The notes below the pieces were generated by a model. It made no database searches. It saw only the letters and a list, made by a program, of their open reading frames with translations, and was not told where the DNA came from. DNA of 64,000 bases from the NCBI GenBank assembly GCA_035516965.1, contig DATIZR010000061.1:77557-141556 (forward strand), written 5' to 3'. The position numbers were made by a program, and so were the translations under genes. Shown here piece by piece: positions 58,014 to 63,543 of this stretch; within the stretch, counting starts at the first letter, position 1, and every line of letters begins with the position of its first letter. This DNA is from Nitrospirota bacterium. GTDB lineage: Bacteria; Nitrospirota; UBA9217.

Positions 58014-58178
58014 TCAGTCGGCGCGAACTTCCTTTCTCGCCGCCGGTCTCTGGGTCGGACGATCGCTCTTCCGAACGCGCCCCTCATTCATGATCTGCCG
58101 TGCCGTTTCGAATTCACCAGCTTCCGCATAGCTCGCTGCAACCATCGCTGTCTCGAATTTCTTGAGTAAGGTTTTCAT
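58014..58178 (-). CDS. unannotated small ORF (54 aa) carrying the standalone AEAGE-ARQIM motif
   Basis: Not in the ORF track (under 60 aa). ATG at 58178 preceded by a very strong RBS AAAGGAGGTAAGGAG. Product MKTLLKKFETAMVAASYAEAGEFETARQIMNEGRVRKSDRPTQRPAARKEVRAD shares the A-x-(S/T)-(F/Y)-AEAGE-x3-ARQIM-x-(E/A)-G block with two Usp-like proteins in the window. Confidence 0.4.
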   Translation of the reverse strand: MKTLLKKFETAMVAASYAEAGEFETARQIMNEGRVRKSDRPTQRPAARKEVRAD

Positions 58179-58435
58179 GGCTCCTTACCTCCTTTCGGTT
58201 ATTTACTAATGTATATTTCAACATACATGCCAGAACGGGGAAATGTTATAAGCAATTGATTTAGAATTGTTTTTAAAATTTCTACACTGGGCAAATGCGA
58301 TACAAGACGTTAAATTTTGCAATGCTATTTCCTGCTACAGGCATTACACATTGAATTTAAAAAGAAATTTTATATGTTGCATGAAATCGTCGGACGTTGT
58401 AAAATGCAACTCAAATCTACCATCCGCTGCCGACC

Positions 58436-60466
58436 ATGAAATTCTTCAAGAGCTCAAACGACGATCAGCAGGAAGTCATCATTGAAGACCTGCGCAAGAA
58501 AGTATCGCTGGCAAAAATGCCTGCTGCGGTTCAGCGCATTGCCGAACAGGAGCTGGCGGTCCTGTCGAAGATAAACCAGTCTGCGGCTGAATACACGATC
58601 GGCGTCACCTATATCGACTATCTGATCTCCCTCCCCTGGAACCTCAAGACCGAGGACAATCTCGACATCCCGAGGGCCGAACACATCCTGAACGAGAACC
58701 ATTTCGGACTCAACCGGATCAAGGAGCGCGTCATGGAGCACCTTGCGGTCAAGGTGCTGATGACGAACCGGAAACCGCGCGTCCTCGTGGTGGATGACGA
58801 GGAGATTGCGCGGAAGAACCTCTCCCATGTGCTTGCGAAAGAGGACTATGACGTGGCCACCGCGGCCGACGGCGAGGCGGCGCTCCGGGAACTGGACGCG
58901 GCGGAGTTCGATGTGGTGATCACGGACCTGAAGATGGGCCGGATCGACGGCATGGAGCTGCTCGATCGCGTGCGCGTACGCCACCCCGATACCCGGGTCA
59001 TCATGGTGACCGGATACGCGACGGTGCCGTCGGCGATCGAGGCCGTGAAAAAGGGCGCCTTCGACTACATCGCAAAGCCGTTCAAGCTCGACGAAGTGCG
59101 CGGCGCGGCCAGGCGGGCAATGGAAAAGAAGGTCCTGCGGTCCAACACCAAGGGCTCGGTCCTCTGTTTTGCCGGCCCTCCGGGAACGGGCAAGACCTCG
59201 CTCGGCAGATCGATCGCCCGCGCGCTCGGAAGAACGTTCACGCGCATAGCCCTGGGCGGGCTCAAGGACGAGGCGGACATCCGTGGCCACCGTCGCACCT
59301 ATGTGGGCGCCAAGCCCGGCAGGGTGATCGAGGAGATCCGCCGCGTGGAATCGGCGAACCCGGTCATCATGCTCGACGAACTGGACAAGGTGGGCAGGGA
59401 CTTCAAGGGCGACCCGGCGTCTGCGCTGCTCGAAGTGCTCGATCCCGAACAGAACCGCACGTTCGTGGACCACTACCTGGACGTGCCGTTCGACCTCTCG
59501 AGCGTAATGTTCATCGTGACCGCCAATGTGCTCGATACGATCCCGGACGCGCTGAGGGACCGTATGGAGGTGATCGAATTCACGGGTTACACCCAGGAAG
59601 AGAAGTTGCAGATCGCCTCCCGGTTCATCTGCCCGAAGCAGGTGCGGGAGAAGGGCCTGTCCCCGACGCAGGTGGCCTTTTCGAACGAGGCGATCGCCAA
59701 GATCATCCAGGAGTACACGCGCGAGGCGGGGATCCGGAACCTGGAGCGCCGGGTCGCTACGATCTGCCGCAAGATCGCCCGCGAGTCCGTGGACGGAAAG
59801 GTAGCGCACGGGACGATGCTCGTATCTCCCGACGCCGTCGAGCGTTACCTCGGTCGCAGCAAGTATCATTTCGAGGTGATCGAGGAAAGGGACCGCGTCG
59901 GCGTGGCCACCGGCCTCGTCCGGACCGAAAGCGGCGGAGACATCATTTTCGTCGAAGCGGCGCAGATGAAAGGCAAGAAGGAGCTGATCATCACCGGCTC
60001 CCTCGGGGACGTGATGCGTGAGTCGGCTCAGGCGGCCCTGAGCTACATCCGGAGCAACGCGTCCGTCTTCGGCATCCCCGAAGACTTCTTCGAGCATCAC
60101 GACATCCACATCCATGTCCCCTCCGGCGCCATCCAGAAGGACGGCCCGTCTGCGGGCATCACCATCCTCGTCGCGCTTGCCTCGCTCCTGACGAAGCGCC
60201 CCGCGCGGCGGGACGTAGCCATGACCGGCGAGATCACGCTGACGGGAAGGATCCTGCCGGTGAGCGGGATCCAGGAAAAGGTGCTCGCGGCCCGTCGCGC
60301 CCGGGTACGGATGGTGATCGTCCCGGCCCGGAACCGGCACGACGTAGCGGAGATGTCCGACGCCGCGAAGAAGGACATCGAGGTTCGCCTCGCCGATACC
60401 ATTCAGGAAGTGGTGGATGCGGTGCTGCTTCCGGATGCGGAGGGAGGTATGCGGAATGCGGAATAA
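58436..60466 (+). CDS. Lon-family ATP-dependent protease with an embedded response-regulator receiver (REC) domain and no LON N-terminal substrate-binding domain
   Basis: 676 aa. Residues 1-110 match only the helical segment preceding the Lon AAA module (LAKMPAAVQRIAEQELAVL ... HFGLNRIKERVMEHLAV). Residues about 113-235 are a complete CheY-like receiver (VLVVDDEE, VVITDLKM phospho-Asp, VIMVTGYA, YIAKPFK). Then a Lon AAA+ module (Walker A GPPGTGKTSLGRSIA, GDPASALLEVLDPEQN sensor) and a Lon protease domain with the Ser-Lys dyad (DGPSAGITILVALASLLT ... K in GIQEKVLAA). Confidence 0.85.
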   Translation: MKFFKSSNDDQQEVIIEDLRKKVSLAKMPAAVQRIAEQELAVLSKINQSAAEYTIGVTYIDYLISLPWNLKTEDNLDIPRAEHILNENHFGLNRIKERVMEHLAVKVLMTNRKPRVLVVDDEEIARKNLSHVLAKEDYDVATAADGEAALRELDAAEFDVVITDLKMGRIDGMELLDRVRVRHPDTRVIMVTGYATVPSAIEAVKKGAFDYIAKPFKLDEVRGAARRAMEKKVLRSNTKGSVLCFAGPPGTGKTSLGRSIARALGRTFTRIALGGLKDEADIRGHRRTYVGAKPGRVIEEIRRVESANPVIMLDELDKVGRDFKGDPASALLEVLDPEQNRTFVDHYLDVPFDLSSVMFIVTANVLDTIPDALRDRMEVIEFTGYTQEEKLQIASRFICPKQVREKGLSPTQVAFSNEAIAKIIQEYTREAGIRNLERRVATICRKIARESVDGKVAHGTMLVSPDAVERYLGRSKYHFEVIEERDRVGVATGLVRTESGGDIIFVEAAQMKGKKELIITGSLGDVMRESAQAALSYIRSNASVFGIPEDFFEHHDIHIHVPSGAIQKDGPSAGITILVALASLLTKRPARRDVAMTGEITLTGRILPVSGIQEKVLAARRARVRMVIVPARNRHDVAEMSDAAKKDIEVRLADTIQEVVDAVLLPDAEGGMRNAE

Positions 60467-62131: not shown

Positions 62132-62181
62132 CGATAGGGTCAGGGTGCAGAGCGGGTGAAGGGATCGAAGGAGCTGAAGAC

Positions 62182-63543
62182 GTGAACAACAACACGAAAC
62201 TACTCATCATCGACGACGAGCGCGTGGCGCTCAGGAACCTCGAACACGTCATGAAAAAAGAGGGCTACGACGTGACCGGCACCCAGAGCGGCGCGAACGC
62301 CCTGAAGCTGCTCGAGGGCCAGCACTTCGACGTGGTCCTCACGGACCTGCGGATGGAGAAAGTCGACGGCATGGAGATCCTGAAGCGCTGCCGCGAGCTC
62401 TACCCCGACACGGAAGTGATCATGATCACCGGCTTTGCGACGCTGGAGTCCGGCGTCGACGCCATGAAGCACGGGGCCTTCTATTACATCGCCAAGCCCT
62501 TCAAGCTCGACGAGGTCCGCAAGGTCGTGAAGGAGGCGGTCGAGAAGGTCTCGCTCAAGAAGGAGAACGAACACCTCCGGGAGCAGCTCGAGCACTACCG
62601 GGGCAGGGTCAAGATCATCACCCAGGACCCGGCCATGCAGCGCCTGCTCGACACTGCTCGCCAGATCGGCCCTACGGACTGCAACGTGCTGATCTCGGGC
62701 GAGAGCGGGACGGGCAAGGAACTGTTCGCCCGGTATCTCCACGTCAGCAGCAAGCGCGCCGAAGGCCCCTTCTTCGCCATCAACTGCGGCGCCTTCAACG
62801 AGGAGCTCCTGACGAGCGAGCTCTTCGGCCACGAGAAGGGCTCATTCACCGGGGCGAACGCGTTCAAGAAGGGCCTGATCGAAATGGCCACGGGAGGGAC
62901 GCTCTTCCTCGACGAGATCACCGAGATGCCTGCGTCCATGCAGGTGAAGCTCCTGCGCGTGATCCAGGAGCGCGAGATGATCCGCGTGGGAGGAACGGAA
63001 CAGATCAAGGTGGACGTGCGCCTCGTGGCCGCGACGAACAGGAACATCCAGGACGCGATCAAGGAAGGCGCCTTCCGGCAGGACCTGTACTTCCGCCTGA
63101 ACGTGGTGACCCTGCACATACCGCCGCTGTCTGAACGCAAGGACGATATTCCCCTCCTCTCCTACTACTTCCTGAAGAAATACGCGGTCATCATGAAGAA
63201 GGACGTGAACGACATCTCCCAGGACGTGATCGGCCTCCTCCTGGGGTACGATTTCCCGGGGAACGTGCGGGAGCTCGAGAACATCATCGAACGCGGCGTG
63301 GCCCTTGCCACGGGGAATGCCATCGAGCTCGCTCACCTGCCCGAGGACCTGCGGGAACTGAACATCAGGACCTTCCGCAAGAAGGAGGGCAAGATCCCCT
63401 CGCTGGAAGAGCAGGAGACGGCCTACATCAAGTGGGTGCTGAACGAGGTCGGCGGGAACAAGACGCTGGCATCCCAGATCCTGGGCATCGACCGCGTGTC
63501 GCTCTGGAGAAAGCTCAAGAAGTACGGGCTGGAGCCGGAATAA
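62182..63543 (+). CDS. sigma54-dependent response regulator (NtrC family)
   Basis: Receiver + AAA+ (GESGTGKE, GHEKGSFTGA GAFTGA-type) + C-terminal HTH. Confidence 0.9.
   Translation: MNNNTKLLIIDDERVALRNLEHVMKKEGYDVTGTQSGANALKLLEGQHFDVVLTDLRMEKVDGMEILKRCRELYPDTEVIMITGFATLESGVDAMKHGAFYYIAKPFKLDEVRKVVKEAVEKVSLKKENEHLREQLEHYRGRVKIITQDPAMQRLLDTARQIGPTDCNVLISGESGTGKELFARYLHVSSKRAEGPFFAINCGAFNEELLTSELFGHEKGSFTGANAFKKGLIEMATGGTLFLDEITEMPASMQVKLLRVIQEREMIRVGGTEQIKVDVRLVAATNRNIQDAIKEGAFRQDLYFRLNVVTLHIPPLSERKDDIPLLSYYFLKKYAVIMKKDVNDISQDVIGLLLGYDFPGNVRELENIIERGVALATGNAIELAHLPEDLRELNIRTFRKKEGKIPSLEEQETAYIKWVLNEVGGNKTLASQILGIDRVSLWRKLKKYGLEPE

Follow-up and report, generated by a model that had tools for sequence, protein, structure and literature searches.

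In the present study, the three-gene locus at positions 58436-63543 of the 64-kb window (the whole stretch of DNA analysed) is recognised, by feature-by-feature likeness, as the Nitrospirota equivalent of a published three-component stress system, DVU3303-DVU3305 of Desulfovibrio vulgaris. For that system, Rajeev et al. (2011, PMC3333781) proposed that one kinase serves both a sigma-54 activator and the receiver domain of a Lon protease; the three-component architecture and its branched model have thus already been published, and no novelty lies there. We estimate a probability of about 0.6 that the same dual-receiver arrangement operates here, with the kinase feeding both the activator and a Lon protease with an inserted receiver (REC-Lon). 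If true, this Lon, which is devoid of the usual substrate-recognition domain, would degrade proteins in just one signalling state.

Comparison with the D. vulgaris system

Several properties of the D. vulgaris system are relevant herein. The three-component genes are induced by stress, the binding of DVU3305 was mapped to the shared intergenic region using DAP-chip and EMSA, and Thermodesulfovibrio yellowstonii was listed in 2011 as a Nitrospirota ortholog with the motif (PMC3333781). In a promoter survey, a sigma-54 promoter was assigned solely to the divergent DVU3302-3298 operon (Kazakov et al. 2015, PMC4641369). Pairwise cofitness above 0.9 was reported among the three genes (Trotter et al. 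2023, PMC10102598). Since DVU3303 comes first in the operon, polarity of its transposon insertions could explain its cofitness with DVU3304 and DVU3305. In chlorate, loss of the signalling genes was beneficial and loss of the TauE-type target DVU3299, which is important under this stress, was harmful (PMC10102598); simple target activation does not obviously predict these opposite phenotypes.

Both systems comprise a Lon that is N-truncated and bears a receiver, together with a histidine kinase and a sigma-54 response regulator. In each, the divergent operon encodes small hypothetical proteins, a membrane/TauE-type transporter and a universal stress protein (USP), it alone has a sigma-54 promoter, and the GTTGC-N5-GCAAC palindrome lies in the shared intergenic region. 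The present locus differs in that it comes from an uncultured Nitrospirota genome, its -12 element reads TTGA/TTGT instead of TTGC, of its two activator sites one is degenerate, and a second full copy of the module is present on the same contig. The REC-Lon homologs of Desulfovibrio and Pseudodesulfovibrio metagenome-assembled genomes are approximately 48-50% identical, and the likeness to the Hildenborough strain is one of features.

Organisation of the locus

Domain searches confirmed the preliminary description of a REC-Lon, a sensor kinase and a sigma-54 activator encoded in this order on one strand, followed by a small membrane ORF and tatA.

58436..60466, + strand: REC-Lon, 676 aa (Pfam and NCBIfam)
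60578..62131, + strand: sensor histidine kinase, 517 aa (domain search, hydrophobic segments)
62182..63543, + strand: NtrC/AtoC-type sigma-54 activator, 453 aa (Pfam, NCBIfam)
63560-63814, + strand: small hydrophobic ORF adjoining the activator, non-conserved
63853 onward, past the window end, + strand: TatA-like ORF (tatA start), non-conserved part

The gaps between lon and the kinase, the kinase and the activator, and the activator and the small ORF are 111, 50 and 16 bp, respectively. No terminator-like site was found between the genes on this strand, and the RNA structure of the lon-kinase gap was not unusual (z = -0.41). The last two ORFs are not part of the conserved module: the small hydrophobic ORF had a match in just one of 34 related loci, and in the sister module L081 a convergent gene stands in its place.

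The kinase has hydrophobic segments at residues 12-30 and 172-190 and is arranged as TM1, a helical extracytoplasmic region of approximately 140 aa, TM2, HAMP, HisKA (His273) and HATPase_c; the EKNYFLY motif noted earlier lies in the extracytoplasmic region, at residues 63-69. The activator comprises Response_reg (Asp55), Sigma54_activat (E 2e-71; Walker A from residue 173, GSFTGA loop from 220) and HTH_8 domains.

The receiver is inserted in an N-truncated LonA

REC-Lon is a LonA-type protease without the globular N domain and with an inserted receiver. It matches P0001, "endopeptidase La [Nitrospirota bacterium]", with 100% identity and passed the cutoff of NCBIfam TIGR00763, "endopeptidase La" (723.9 bits vs 608). 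The Pfam matches were Response_reg (116-224, E 8e-32), AAA (243-383), Lon_lid (405-455) and Lon_C (463-664, E 2e-80), and alignment to the solved Lon chain 7p6u_A defined three parts.

58436..58774, + strand: N-terminal helical fragment of Lon, residues 1-113 (alignment to 7p6u_A)
58781..59107, + strand: Lon receiver, residues 116-224 (PF00072, E 8e-32)
59162..60427, + strand: Lon AAA+ module, lid and S16 protease domain (Pfam, 7p6u_A alignment)

Residues 15-111 align to 250-346 of 7p6u_A, i.e. to the three-helix-bundle region preceding the AAA+ module in canonical LonA, and residues 241-667 align to 354-778. The first approximately 240 residues of canonical LonA had no match in REC-Lon, and no LON substrate-binding domain was matched in Pfam. 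Compared with LonA of E. coli, Thermus, Meiothermus and Bacillus, the AAA+, lid and Ser-Lys protease parts are approximately 55% identical, whereas REC-Lon lacks this N-terminal region, including the globular substrate-binding domain, and residues 112-240, an insertion of 129 residues, replace approximately 7 residues of LonA. Its start is close to that of the truncated LonA constructs 4ypl and 3m6a, which still form hexamers. The alignment places the receiver insertion after the N-terminal helical bundle and ahead of the AAA+ ring. Helix alpha5 of the receiver (218-236) reaches nearly to strand beta1 of AAA+, as judged from secondary structure only; the AlphaFold model (pLDDT 67, pTM 0.34) was too uncertain for the domain arrangement.

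The catalytic motifs comprise Walker A (GPPGTGKT, 247-254), Walker B (MLDELDK, from 312), Ser572 and Lys615. The Walker A lysine K253, the pore-loop residues Y289-V290 and the Ser-Lys dyad S572 and K615 were invariant across 47 homologs, as was the receiver switch residue Y211, and D120, D121, D164, T192 and K214 were kept in all 35 Lon receivers compared. Judged by these residues, the Lon receiver appears intact and is predicted to be phosphorylatable, and the ATPase and protease modules appear catalytically complete.

The AT-rich gap and the divergent operon

The 257-bp gap at 58179-58435 has a GC content of 0.31-0.40, compared with approximately 0.6 in its surroundings. The AT-richness described previously was thus borne out, but its assignment as a dedicated 5' region of the lon operon was not, as the predicted elements in the gap mostly make up an enhancer and promoter that belong to the divergent operon.

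58396..58410, no strand assigned: UAS1, putative activator binding site, GTTGTAAAATGCAAC (match to the DVU3305 motif)
58310..58324, no strand assigned: UAS2, degenerate candidate second activator site, GTTAAATTTTGCAAT, 3 mismatches (from its position in relatives)
58249..58261, - strand: IHF-like site AATCAATTGCTTA, matching WATCAANNNNTTR (read from the sequence)
58217..58232, - strand: sigma-54-type -24/-12 promoter, TGGCATGTATGTTGAA (conserved element of the divergent operon)

UAS1 is one base off the EMSA-validated DVU3305 palindrome GTTGC-N5-GCAAC (PMC3333781, Tables S6, S7 and S9) and is the sole match with at most one mismatch in the window. Among relatives, it is nearly invariant and lies at a fixed distance of approximately 217 nt from the ATG of the first divergent ORF, whereas its distance from the lon ATG varies from 39 to 2078 nt. 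A second palindrome stands 129-154 nt from the small-ORF ATG in relatives; UAS2 lies at 131 nt, and its TGCAA core is invariant (alignment A4). IHF may bind the site between the UAS elements and the promoter, where the columns are partly conserved (alignment A3). The -24/-12 element precedes the small-ORF ATG, with its end at a distance of 38 nt, and 18 of the 19 loci checked have the element 36-69 nt ahead of the small ORF. Its TGGCA and the TG 10 nt further on were invariant in 13 aligned loci, although the mean identity of the region was just 59%. A single copy of the pattern TGGCAY-N5-TTGWW is present in the window, compared with 0.08 expected. No sigma-54 promoter facing lon was found in the gap.

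The operon controlled by these predicted elements comprises five genes.

58014..58178, - strand: small conserved protein, 54 aa, AEAGE-type motif; first gene of the predicted sigma-54-dependent operon
57469..57960, - strand: 163-aa protein, conserved in relatives, weakly USP-like
57129..57428, - strand: 99-aa protein with two hydrophobic segments, conserved in relatives
56045..57127, - strand: TauE/SafE (TSUP) permease, 360 aa (PF01925, E 5e-34)
55204..56118, - strand: tandem USP, 304 aa (PF00582, two stretches, E 2e-64)

The 54-aa protein matched no Pfam or NCBIfam family, and its ORF is judged to be a real gene because it is conserved in relatives (49-85% identity), has an invariant AAGGAGG ribosome-binding site and stands behind the promoter element. 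The N-terminal approximately 35 residues of the 163-aa protein are paralogous to it (alignment A2), and the C-terminal part gave sub-threshold matches to Usp (E 0.054) and PDB 1q77 (E 0.038). The permease, 78-92% identical in most Nitrospirota relatives, corresponds in position to DVU3299 of D. vulgaris, and the tandem USP is also conserved in relatives. The earlier suggestion that this divergent small-ORF/USP/TSUP block may be a target of the system is supported by the palindrome, the conserved -24/-12 element and the kept neighbourhood. A second kinase-activator pair lies at 50266-53326, and at least nine relatives have such a pair immediately after the USP gene.

Conservation of the module

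The gene set recurs in approximately 30 independent genomes. REC-Lon adjoins a kinase of the EKNYFLY-type family and the activator in approximately 27 of the approximately 31 loci with enough flanking sequence, in three gene orders and in Nitrospirota, Desulfovibrionales and Desulfobulbaceae; the kinase orthologs adjoining it in most loci are 54-74% identical, and the activator orthologs of related loci 65-87%. The activator is missing in four loci, among which L018 and L020 have a kinase plus a single-domain receiver beside REC-Lon, and L011 and L024 have neither. The DHp helices of the two paralogous modules of the contig are nearly identical, which suggests loose partner specificity.

Similarity of the two receivers

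The Lon receiver is 54% identical, ungapped, to the receiver of the adjacent activator, compared with 39-42% for the other two receivers in the window; the Lon-activator identity is approximately 50-58% in most genomes examined, and the group mean is 0.48 vs 0.39 and 0.34. The kinase-contact helix alpha1 reads I/V-A-x-x-N-L-x-H in both, compared with I-T-L-K-H-L-x-N in the neighbouring second activator. However, the Lon-activator identity of this helix (0.53) was not higher than that of the rest of the domain (0.47), so that shared ancestry, and not selection for a common partner, may account for the likeness. In a neighbour-joining tree, a clade of Lon and activator receivers was obtained in just 1 of 40 bootstraps, and the comparison of specificity residues, although compatible with a shared kinase, was non-discriminating. 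The most similar segment was beta5-alpha5 (0.74 vs 0.47 elsewhere), a segment that NtrC-family receivers all share, that of the unrelated second activator among them, and that thus is not a specific signal. No direct demonstration of phosphotransfer to the Lon receiver was found in the literature searched; transfer from one kinase to both receivers would fit these data.

Proposed mechanism and alternatives

Herein, we propose that the membrane kinase would use its helical extracytoplasmic domain to sense a stress of the envelope or oxyanion type, autophosphorylate His273 and pass the phosphoryl group to the two receivers, at Asp55 in the activator and Asp164 in REC-Lon. The phosphorylated activator would assemble at both UAS elements, probably aided by DNA bending of the IHF type, and open the promoter at 58217-58232, turning on the genes for the small and USP-like proteins, the membrane protein, the TauE exporter and the tandem USP. 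Simultaneously, the phosphorylated receiver, located between the helical bundle and the first AAA+ strand, would alter ring assembly or the substrate-entry gate, and this control would resemble that exerted by receivers on AAA+ assembly in NtrC1-type activators.

The receiver might instead make Lon a feedback protease. As a paralog of the activator's receiver that replaces the missing substrate-recognition domain, it would capture the activator by heterodimerisation of the receivers through alpha4-beta5-alpha5, and Lon would degrade this partner instead of independent substrates and so end the response. NtrC-family receivers are known to dimerise via this face. The absence of the usual substrate recogniser, the receiver identity with its maximum in beta5-alpha5 and the best solved match to NtrC1 (1zy2) are in line with such capture, which could also account for the odd sign of the chlorate phenotypes; however, the beta5-alpha5 likeness is unspecific, opposite phenotypes of Lon and activator mutants would be predicted rather than the observed cofitness (polarity could mask this), and REC-Lon is retained without the activator in L018 and L020. 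We consider this explanation unlikely. Slightly less probable still is that the Lon receiver drains phosphoryl groups from the kinase to tune the activator, the protease being constitutive and indifferent to phosphorylation. Branched systems in which a second receiver acts as a sink are well known, e.g. those with CheY paralogs, and the similar alpha1 residues of the two receivers and the loose specificity suggested by the DHp helices agree with this precedent. Nevertheless, very short linkers right before the first AAA+ strand are an odd site for a passive sink, the residues coupling phosphorylation to conformation (T192, Y211) are invariant, and a sink needs no full, catalytically intact Lon under selection.

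We attach a similarly small likelihood to a different phosphodonor, either another kinase, e.g. that of the second pair at 50266-53326, or acetyl phosphate, with adjacency reflecting co-expression only. The recurrence of that pair beside the USP gene in relatives, the lack of enrichment in contact-residue identity and the absence of an adjoining kinase in L011 and L024 could be explained in this way. Against it, the Lon alpha1 resembles that of the first activator (A, N, H) rather than the second (T, H, N), in three gene orders REC-Lon is followed by the EKNYFLY-type kinase, even with the activator replaced, and the D. vulgaris genes are cofit (PMC10102598). Finally, chance adjacency, or a defence or mobile element such as one with the anti-phage Lon-type BrxL, is effectively refuted by the synteny kept in approximately 30 genomes and by the regulatory link mapped experimentally in D. 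vulgaris (PMC3333781). In PADLOC, the protease domain weakly matched BrxL (47 bits) and the activator weakly matched RtcR-type models, but these are single generic domains with no defence-system partner genes present, and the 58179-58435 gap showed neither repeats nor mobile-element features.

Relation to other receiver-controlled proteases and activators

The dual-receiver reading can be compared with several known systems. In RpoS turnover by RssB-ClpXP and in CpdR-ClpXP of Caulobacter, a receiver likewise decides degradation by an AAA+ protease, coupling His-Asp signalling to proteolysis; there, however, the receiver is a separate adaptor delivering substrates to ClpXP, whereas in the present case it is a covalent insertion in the protease itself, a Lon. 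Membership in the RssB or CpdR families was rejected, as the matches covered the receiver only and were far below the cutoffs (75 vs 700 and 67 vs 180 bits). The Lon receiver is of the NtrC/AtoC type, with AtoC as its best NCBIfam receiver match, and in NtrC1/DctD-type activators the receiver also stands almost directly before the AAA+ module. By analogy, these activators are plausible models for phosphorylation gating of hexamer assembly, although the AAA+ module here is a Lon unfoldase fused to a protease and not a sigma-54 remodelling ATPase, REC-Lon has neither the GAFTGA loop nor a DNA-binding domain, and its mode of control is inferred. In chemotaxis, CheA similarly serves two adjacently encoded receiver outputs of differing kind, CheY and CheB; in the putative branching described here, the outputs would be transcription and ATP-dependent proteolysis.

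Gene content and organization

The following features were annotated in the window around the REC-Lon gene.

55204-58178, minus strand: divergent block encoding proteins of 54, 163 and 99 amino acids, a TauE/TSUP permease and a tandem USP, kept in relatives
58261-58249, minus strand: putative IHF-like match AATCAATTGCTTA, between the enhancer sites and the promoter
58436-60466, plus strand: REC-Lon, 676 amino acids, with Pfam Response_reg, AAA, Lon lid and Lon S16 protease domains
60578-62131, plus strand: histidine kinase, 517 amino acids, with two hydrophobic segments, HAMP, HisKA (His273) and HATPase_c
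62182-63543, plus strand: sigma-54 activator, with PF00072, PF00158 (E = 2e-71) and PF02954/HTH_8, and a GSFTGA loop from residue 220
63560-63814, plus strand: small hydrophobic ORF, downstream of the activator
63853 onward, plus strand: start of tatA, after the small hydrophobic ORF

The preliminary description had proposed that REC-Lon, an EKNYFLY sensor kinase and a sigma-54 activator lie together on one strand, followed by a small membrane ORF and tatA, and this order was recovered in full, with Pfam domains in agreement for all three module genes. The EKNYFLY motif occupies residues 63-69 of the kinase, between the two membrane helices. The activator has the receiver, the GAFTGA-type AAA+ domain and the Fis-type HTH of an NtrC-family enhancer-binding protein; its assignment as a named ortholog was rejected, as it scored under every NCBIfam equivalog cutoff (AtoC, 477 vs 714 bits). 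The gaps between the plus-strand genes are 111, 50 and 16 bp, no terminator-like site was observed on this strand between the module genes in a terminator scan, and no unusual RNA structure was found in the lon-kinase gap. An Rfam scan of 55000-64000 gave no significant match. The sole sigma-70-like promoter match within 57400-64000 (TTGAAA-17-TATCGT, 63749-63777, plus strand) is located just 5' of tatA, which suggests that tatA has its own promoter and stands outside the lon operon.

In the divergent block, the 99-aa product is a two-helix membrane protein, and the 163-aa protein (57469-57960, minus strand) is weakly USP-like except for its first ~35 residues, which are paralogous to the 54-aa protein (58014-58178, minus strand). 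The shared motif, K..L.KK.E.A..A..FAE.GE.E.A...M.EGR, corresponds to no Pfam or NCBIfam family, and the 54-aa protein, the 163-aa protein and the sensor region of the kinase gave at most sub-threshold matches in Pfam and PDB. As first products of the divergent, putatively induced operon, the 54-aa and 163-aa proteins are candidate substrates or regulators of Lon.

A second kinase (51734-53326) and a second sigma-54 activator (50266-51702), both on the minus strand, were observed past the USP gene. In at least nine relatives this pair comes immediately after USP in the same orientation, so that transcription of the sigma-54 operon may extend into another two-component system and create a cascade. 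In the window, USP and this pair are separated by a PAS-GGDEF gene (53667-54929, plus strand), and a sigma-54 consensus with one mismatch, AGGCACGCATTTTGCT, is present ahead of this gene at 53613-53628.

A receiver inserted into an N-truncated Lon

In REC-Lon, Pfam identified a receiver (Response_reg, residues 116-224, E = 8e-32), an AAA domain (243-383), a Lon lid (405-455) and Lon_C (463-664, E = 2e-80), and the score against TIGR00763, endopeptidase La, was 723.9 bits, over the equivalog cutoff of 608. The protein is 100% identical to a database entry, "endopeptidase La [Nitrospirota bacterium]", from a metagenomic contig of 154 kb, and the same receiver-plus-Lon_C architecture occurs in more than 120 database proteins that reach at least 73% identity. 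Walker A (GPPGTGKT, 247-254), Walker B (MLDELDK, from 312) and the catalytic dyad S572 and K615 are present. The residues Y211, K253 of Walker A, Y289-V290 of the pore loop, S572 and K615 were invariant in 47 homologs, and D120, D121, D164, T192 and K214 were kept in 35 of 35 Lon receivers; the acidic pocket, phospho-acceptor Asp, Thr, aromatic residue and Lys typical of PF00072 are thus all found in REC-Lon. Judged from this invariance of the phospho-acceptor and catalytic residues, REC-Lon appears to be a working receiver joined to a working unfoldase-protease.

No Pfam match to the LON substrate-binding domain was obtained N-terminal to residue 116, and both the NCBIfam and the PDB alignments start at about position 250 of canonical Lon. 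Aligned with the solved Lon 7p6u_A, residues 15-111 of REC-Lon correspond to 250-346 and residues 241-667 to 354-778. Because this alignment starts at residue 250 of 7p6u_A, REC-Lon lacks the globular N-terminal region formed by approximately the first 240 residues of canonical LonA, and it is best called an N-truncated LonA derivative. Between the helical bundle and the first strand of the AAA+ domain, where canonical LonA has about seven residues, REC-Lon has residues 112-240, including the receiver. The start of REC-Lon roughly coincides with that of 4ypl and 3m6a, N-truncated Lon constructs made for crystallography. An AlphaFold2 model based on the 47-sequence alignment reached a pLDDT of 67 and a pTM of 0.34, values too low for the domain arrangement, which was discarded, and the secondary structure alone was used; it predicts a normal receiver fold whose alpha5 (218-236) would reach almost to strand beta1 of the AAA+ domain.

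Short LonA proteins of ~525 aa, 55-60% identical to the window Lon, are encoded in many genomes (loci L035-L080; Anaerolineae, Chloroflexota and others) and have the helical bundle, AAA+ and protease domains with neither the globular N domain nor a receiver. The receiver-fused Lon may have arisen from such a natural N-truncated backbone. When a representative library was searched for more divergent REC-Lon proteins, the best matches from outside the family were tandem-AAA Lons without receivers. Seven of these database proteins (P0121, P0124, P0125, P0127-P0129 and P0133), of 900-1400 aa, have two or three AAA+/Lon-lid modules followed by one protease domain; P0123 differs from them in having two Lon_C stretches.

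Correspondence with the Desulfovibrio vulgaris system

In D. vulgaris Hildenborough, DVU3305 regulates its own operon and the upstream DVU3302-3298, which encode membrane, hypothetical and UspA-type proteins, and the genes of the system are induced by high pH, heat and stationary phase (Rajeev 2011, PMC3333781). The same study validated the DVU3305 palindrome GTTGC-N5-GCAAC by EMSA, traced it to orthologs in Desulfovibrio, Desulfomicrobium, Dechloromonas, Thioalkalivibrio and Thermodesulfovibrio yellowstonii (Nitrospirota), the Thermodesulfovibrio ortholog of DVU3305 being at 50%, and described the Lon-containing protein DVU3303, annotated as "ATP-dependent protease La, truncation", as having an "unusual domain structure". 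A sigma-54 promoter was assigned to DVU3302-3298, while DVU3303-3305 were marked without one (Kazakov 2015, PMC4641369). DVU3303, DVU3304 and DVU3305 show pairwise cofitness above 0.9; all three are detrimental in chlorate, a condition under which the putative anion transporter DVU3299, a target of the system, is important (Trotter 2023, PMC10102598).

The window locus matches this published system feature by feature: an N-truncated receiver Lon, an adjacent kinase and sigma-54 regulator, a divergent hypothetical/membrane/USP operon, GTTGC-N5-GCAAC in the shared intergenic region, and a sigma-54 promoter on the divergent operon only. The window protein shares 48-50% identity with REC-Lon homologs from MAGs of Desulfovibrio and Pseudodesulfovibrio. 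The locus is a further instance of an already published system. The branched reading offered in the preliminary description, in which one kinase serves both activator and Lon, agrees with the published D. vulgaris model, and its novelty falls away, since PMC3333781 is earlier.

Conservation of the module in related genomes

A scan of one genome per species gave 34 REC-Lon loci, from Nitrospirota/Thermodesulfovibrionales, Desulfobacterales, Desulfobulbaceae, and Desulfovibrio or Pseudodesulfovibrio. Most Nitrospirota loci have the gene order of the window, with USP, TauE, membrane protein, 163-aa protein and small protein divergent from Lon, kinase and activator. In three loci (L015, L016 and L019) the kinase-activator pair is inverted and Lon is co-directional with the target block, and in Desulfovibrio-type loci the kinase and activator are convergent with Lon. 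Two Nitrospiraceae-type loci, L018 (10232-12336) and L020 (5061-7265), have REC-Lon followed by a convergent kinase that shares the sensor type (RRNEKN motif), and in place of the sigma-54 activator they encode a single-domain receiver of 129 aa; this is a variant without the transcriptional arm. In L011 and L024, REC-Lon has no adjacent partner. Altogether, Lon, kinase and activator were found together in ~27 of the ~31 loci with enough flanking sequence, and because the trio stays together through rearranged gene orders, this linkage is good evidence of a functional link among them.

Regulatory DNA of the intergenic gap

The gap 58179-58435 has a GC content of 0.31-0.40, compared with ~0.6 elsewhere in the window. 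A putative activator site, UAS1 (GTTGTAAAATGCAAC, 58396-58410), is the sole sequence in the 64-kb window that matches GTTGC-N5-GCAAC with one mismatch or fewer; as 1.84 such matches are expected, this number is not above chance, and the weight of UAS1 lies in its position inside the 257-bp gap and its conservation in relatives. Across relatives, it stays ~217 nt from the ATG of the small protein and lies anywhere between 39 and 2078 nt from that of lon. In many relatives a second palindrome is located 129-154 nt from the small-protein ATG; the window counterpart, UAS2 (GTTAAATTTTGCAAT, 58310-58324), at 131 nt, is a degenerate palindrome whose TGCAA core is invariant.

On the minus strand, TGGCAY-N5-(T)TG(T/A)W was observed 36-69 nt 5' of the small-protein ATG in 18 of 19 related loci, L014 being the exception in which no -24/-12-type element was found near this ATG. 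In a 13-locus alignment with a regional mean identity of just 59%, TGGCA and, ten bases later, TG are invariant, as is the AAGGAGG ribosome-binding site of the small protein. The window element, TGGCATGTATGTTGAA at 58232-58217 (minus strand), is the predicted sigma-54 promoter of the divergent operon, and the pattern derived from relatives occurs once in the window against 0.08 expected. Matches to the general sigma-54 consensus in the whole window were no more numerous than chance, and the sigma-54 and palindrome matches in the gap carry weight by position and conservation alone. GG-N10-GC has no match on the plus strand of the gap, so that no sigma-54 element faces lon, and a sigma-70 scan revealed no convincing promoter for the lon operon. 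A sigma-54 promoter on the divergent operon alone is in agreement with PMC4641369 for D. vulgaris.

Given the conserved -24/-12 element, the fixed UAS1 distance and the IHF-like match between them, the gap appears to be mainly a classical arrangement of enhancer, bend and -24/-12 promoter for the divergent operon, as it is in D. vulgaris. The AT-rich stretch had been described as the 5' region of lon; its AT-richness was confirmed, and its dedication to lon was not, the elements serving mainly the divergent operon. The suggestion that the small ORF and the USP-TSUP block may be targets or co-factors gains support, on the side of targets, from the palindrome and the conserved -24/-12 element ahead of this block. 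Autoregulation of the lon operon through UAS1 is also possible in the window, though not a conserved feature, because UAS1 is only 26 bp ahead of the lon ATG.

Two more conserved intergenic blocks were observed, TTGAAT (58351-58356) and an invariant TGTTGCA (58375-58381); TGTTGCA repeats one half of the activator palindrome and lies 20 nt 5' of UAS1. The blocks may serve as a third contact for the activator or as the lon operon promoter.

Proposed mechanism and alternative explanations

Herein, we propose that the kinase would pass its phosphoryl group to Asp55 of the activator and Asp164 of REC-Lon, that the activator would switch on the exporter/USP operon, and that the phosphorylated receiver at the mouth of the AAA+ ring might gate Lon assembly or substrate entry, by analogy to NtrC1-type control. 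In the full form of this proposal, the receiver has replaced the substrate-recognition domain, the ring is switched directly by His-Asp phosphotransfer, and phospho-Asp164, which gates assembly or entry, might also recruit the activator receiver as a substrate; we regard it as tentative, with a probability of roughly 0.35. A directly phosphorylation-gated AAA+ protease of this kind was not found in the literature searched.

A shared kinase was considered at the level of the receivers. The Lon receiver is 54% identical, without gaps, to that of the adjacent activator and 39-42% identical to the remaining two window receivers, and over all loci the mean identities were 0.48 for Lon and its cognate activator, 0.39 for Lon and the second activator, and 0.34 for Lon and others. 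In the Spo0F-Spo0B and HK853-RR468 complexes, contact with the kinase is made mainly through helix alpha1. This helix reads I/V-A-x-x-N-L-x-H in the Lon and activator receivers and I-T-L-K-H-L-x-N in the neighbouring second activator, and the residue six after the Asp-Asp pair is K/R in both Lon and activator in most Nitrospirota and E in both in Desulfovibrio-type loci and one further locus (L033). The alpha1 identity of the two receivers, 0.53, is no higher than the 0.47 over the rest of the domain, and the specificity-residue test was dropped as evidence for a shared kinase; a neighbour-joining tree of 79 receivers, which bears on a possible origin of the Lon receiver by duplication from the activator, united Lon and activator in just 1 of 40 bootstraps. 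The sequence data are compatible with a shared kinase but are not proof of it, and a rival explanation is that another phosphodonor serves the Lon receiver. The strongest support for a shared kinase is the conserved neighbourhood together with the D. vulgaris cofitness, with the caveat of possible polar effects when insertions hit the leading gene of an operon.

Two other explanations were considered. As a protease acting in feedback, REC-Lon might capture the paralogous activator receiver, or the Lon receiver might be a passive phosphate sink. The chlorate pattern in D. vulgaris, in which loss of the signalling genes helps and loss of the TauE-type target hurts, fits none of these explanations neatly. 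Mere adjacency and a defence system were ruled out by the conserved synteny and by PADLOC, which detected no defence system at the locus. An anti-phage Lon-type system (BrxL and others) was rejected, with no more than a 47-bit partial match to the BrxL protease domain and no partner genes.

Regulated proteolysis in bacteria is usually under the control of separate adaptor proteins. Unlike REC-Lon, the adaptors RssB and CpdR are stand-alone receivers; the matches of REC-Lon to them cover the receiver only and are far under the family cutoffs (75.5 vs 700 bits and 67.3 vs 180 bits), and the analogy is functional only. If REC-Lon is receiver-controlled, it would be the most direct known link between a sensor kinase and protein degradation, in a family widespread in anaerobes (Nitrospirota, Desulfobacterota and some Betaproteobacteria). 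The transcriptional arm has been mapped, with fitness phenotypes, in a model organism; for the proteolytic arm, our literature searches found no biochemical study of a receiver-fused Lon. The window opens no new question and offers a clean, duplicated and well-conserved example of the system. The anatomy is described more sharply, as regards where the receiver is inserted, the absence of the N domain and the assignment of promoter and enhancer, which makes the existing question easier to test.

A second copy of the module

A second complete module, L081, was observed on the same 154-kb contig (Ga0265292_1000125, contig positions 2743-18749), outside the window; in it, a block of small protein, USP-like protein, membrane protein, TauE and USP diverges from the genes for REC-Lon, kinase and activator. 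Its identities to the window copy are 78% for Lon, 67% for the kinase, 80% for the activator and 89% for TauE. The DHp helices and the alpha1 residues of the receivers are almost identical in the two copies, with no signal of parallel changes in specificity residues; divergence is confined to the extracytoplasmic sensor regions. The two modules may respond to distinct cues and still cross-talk.
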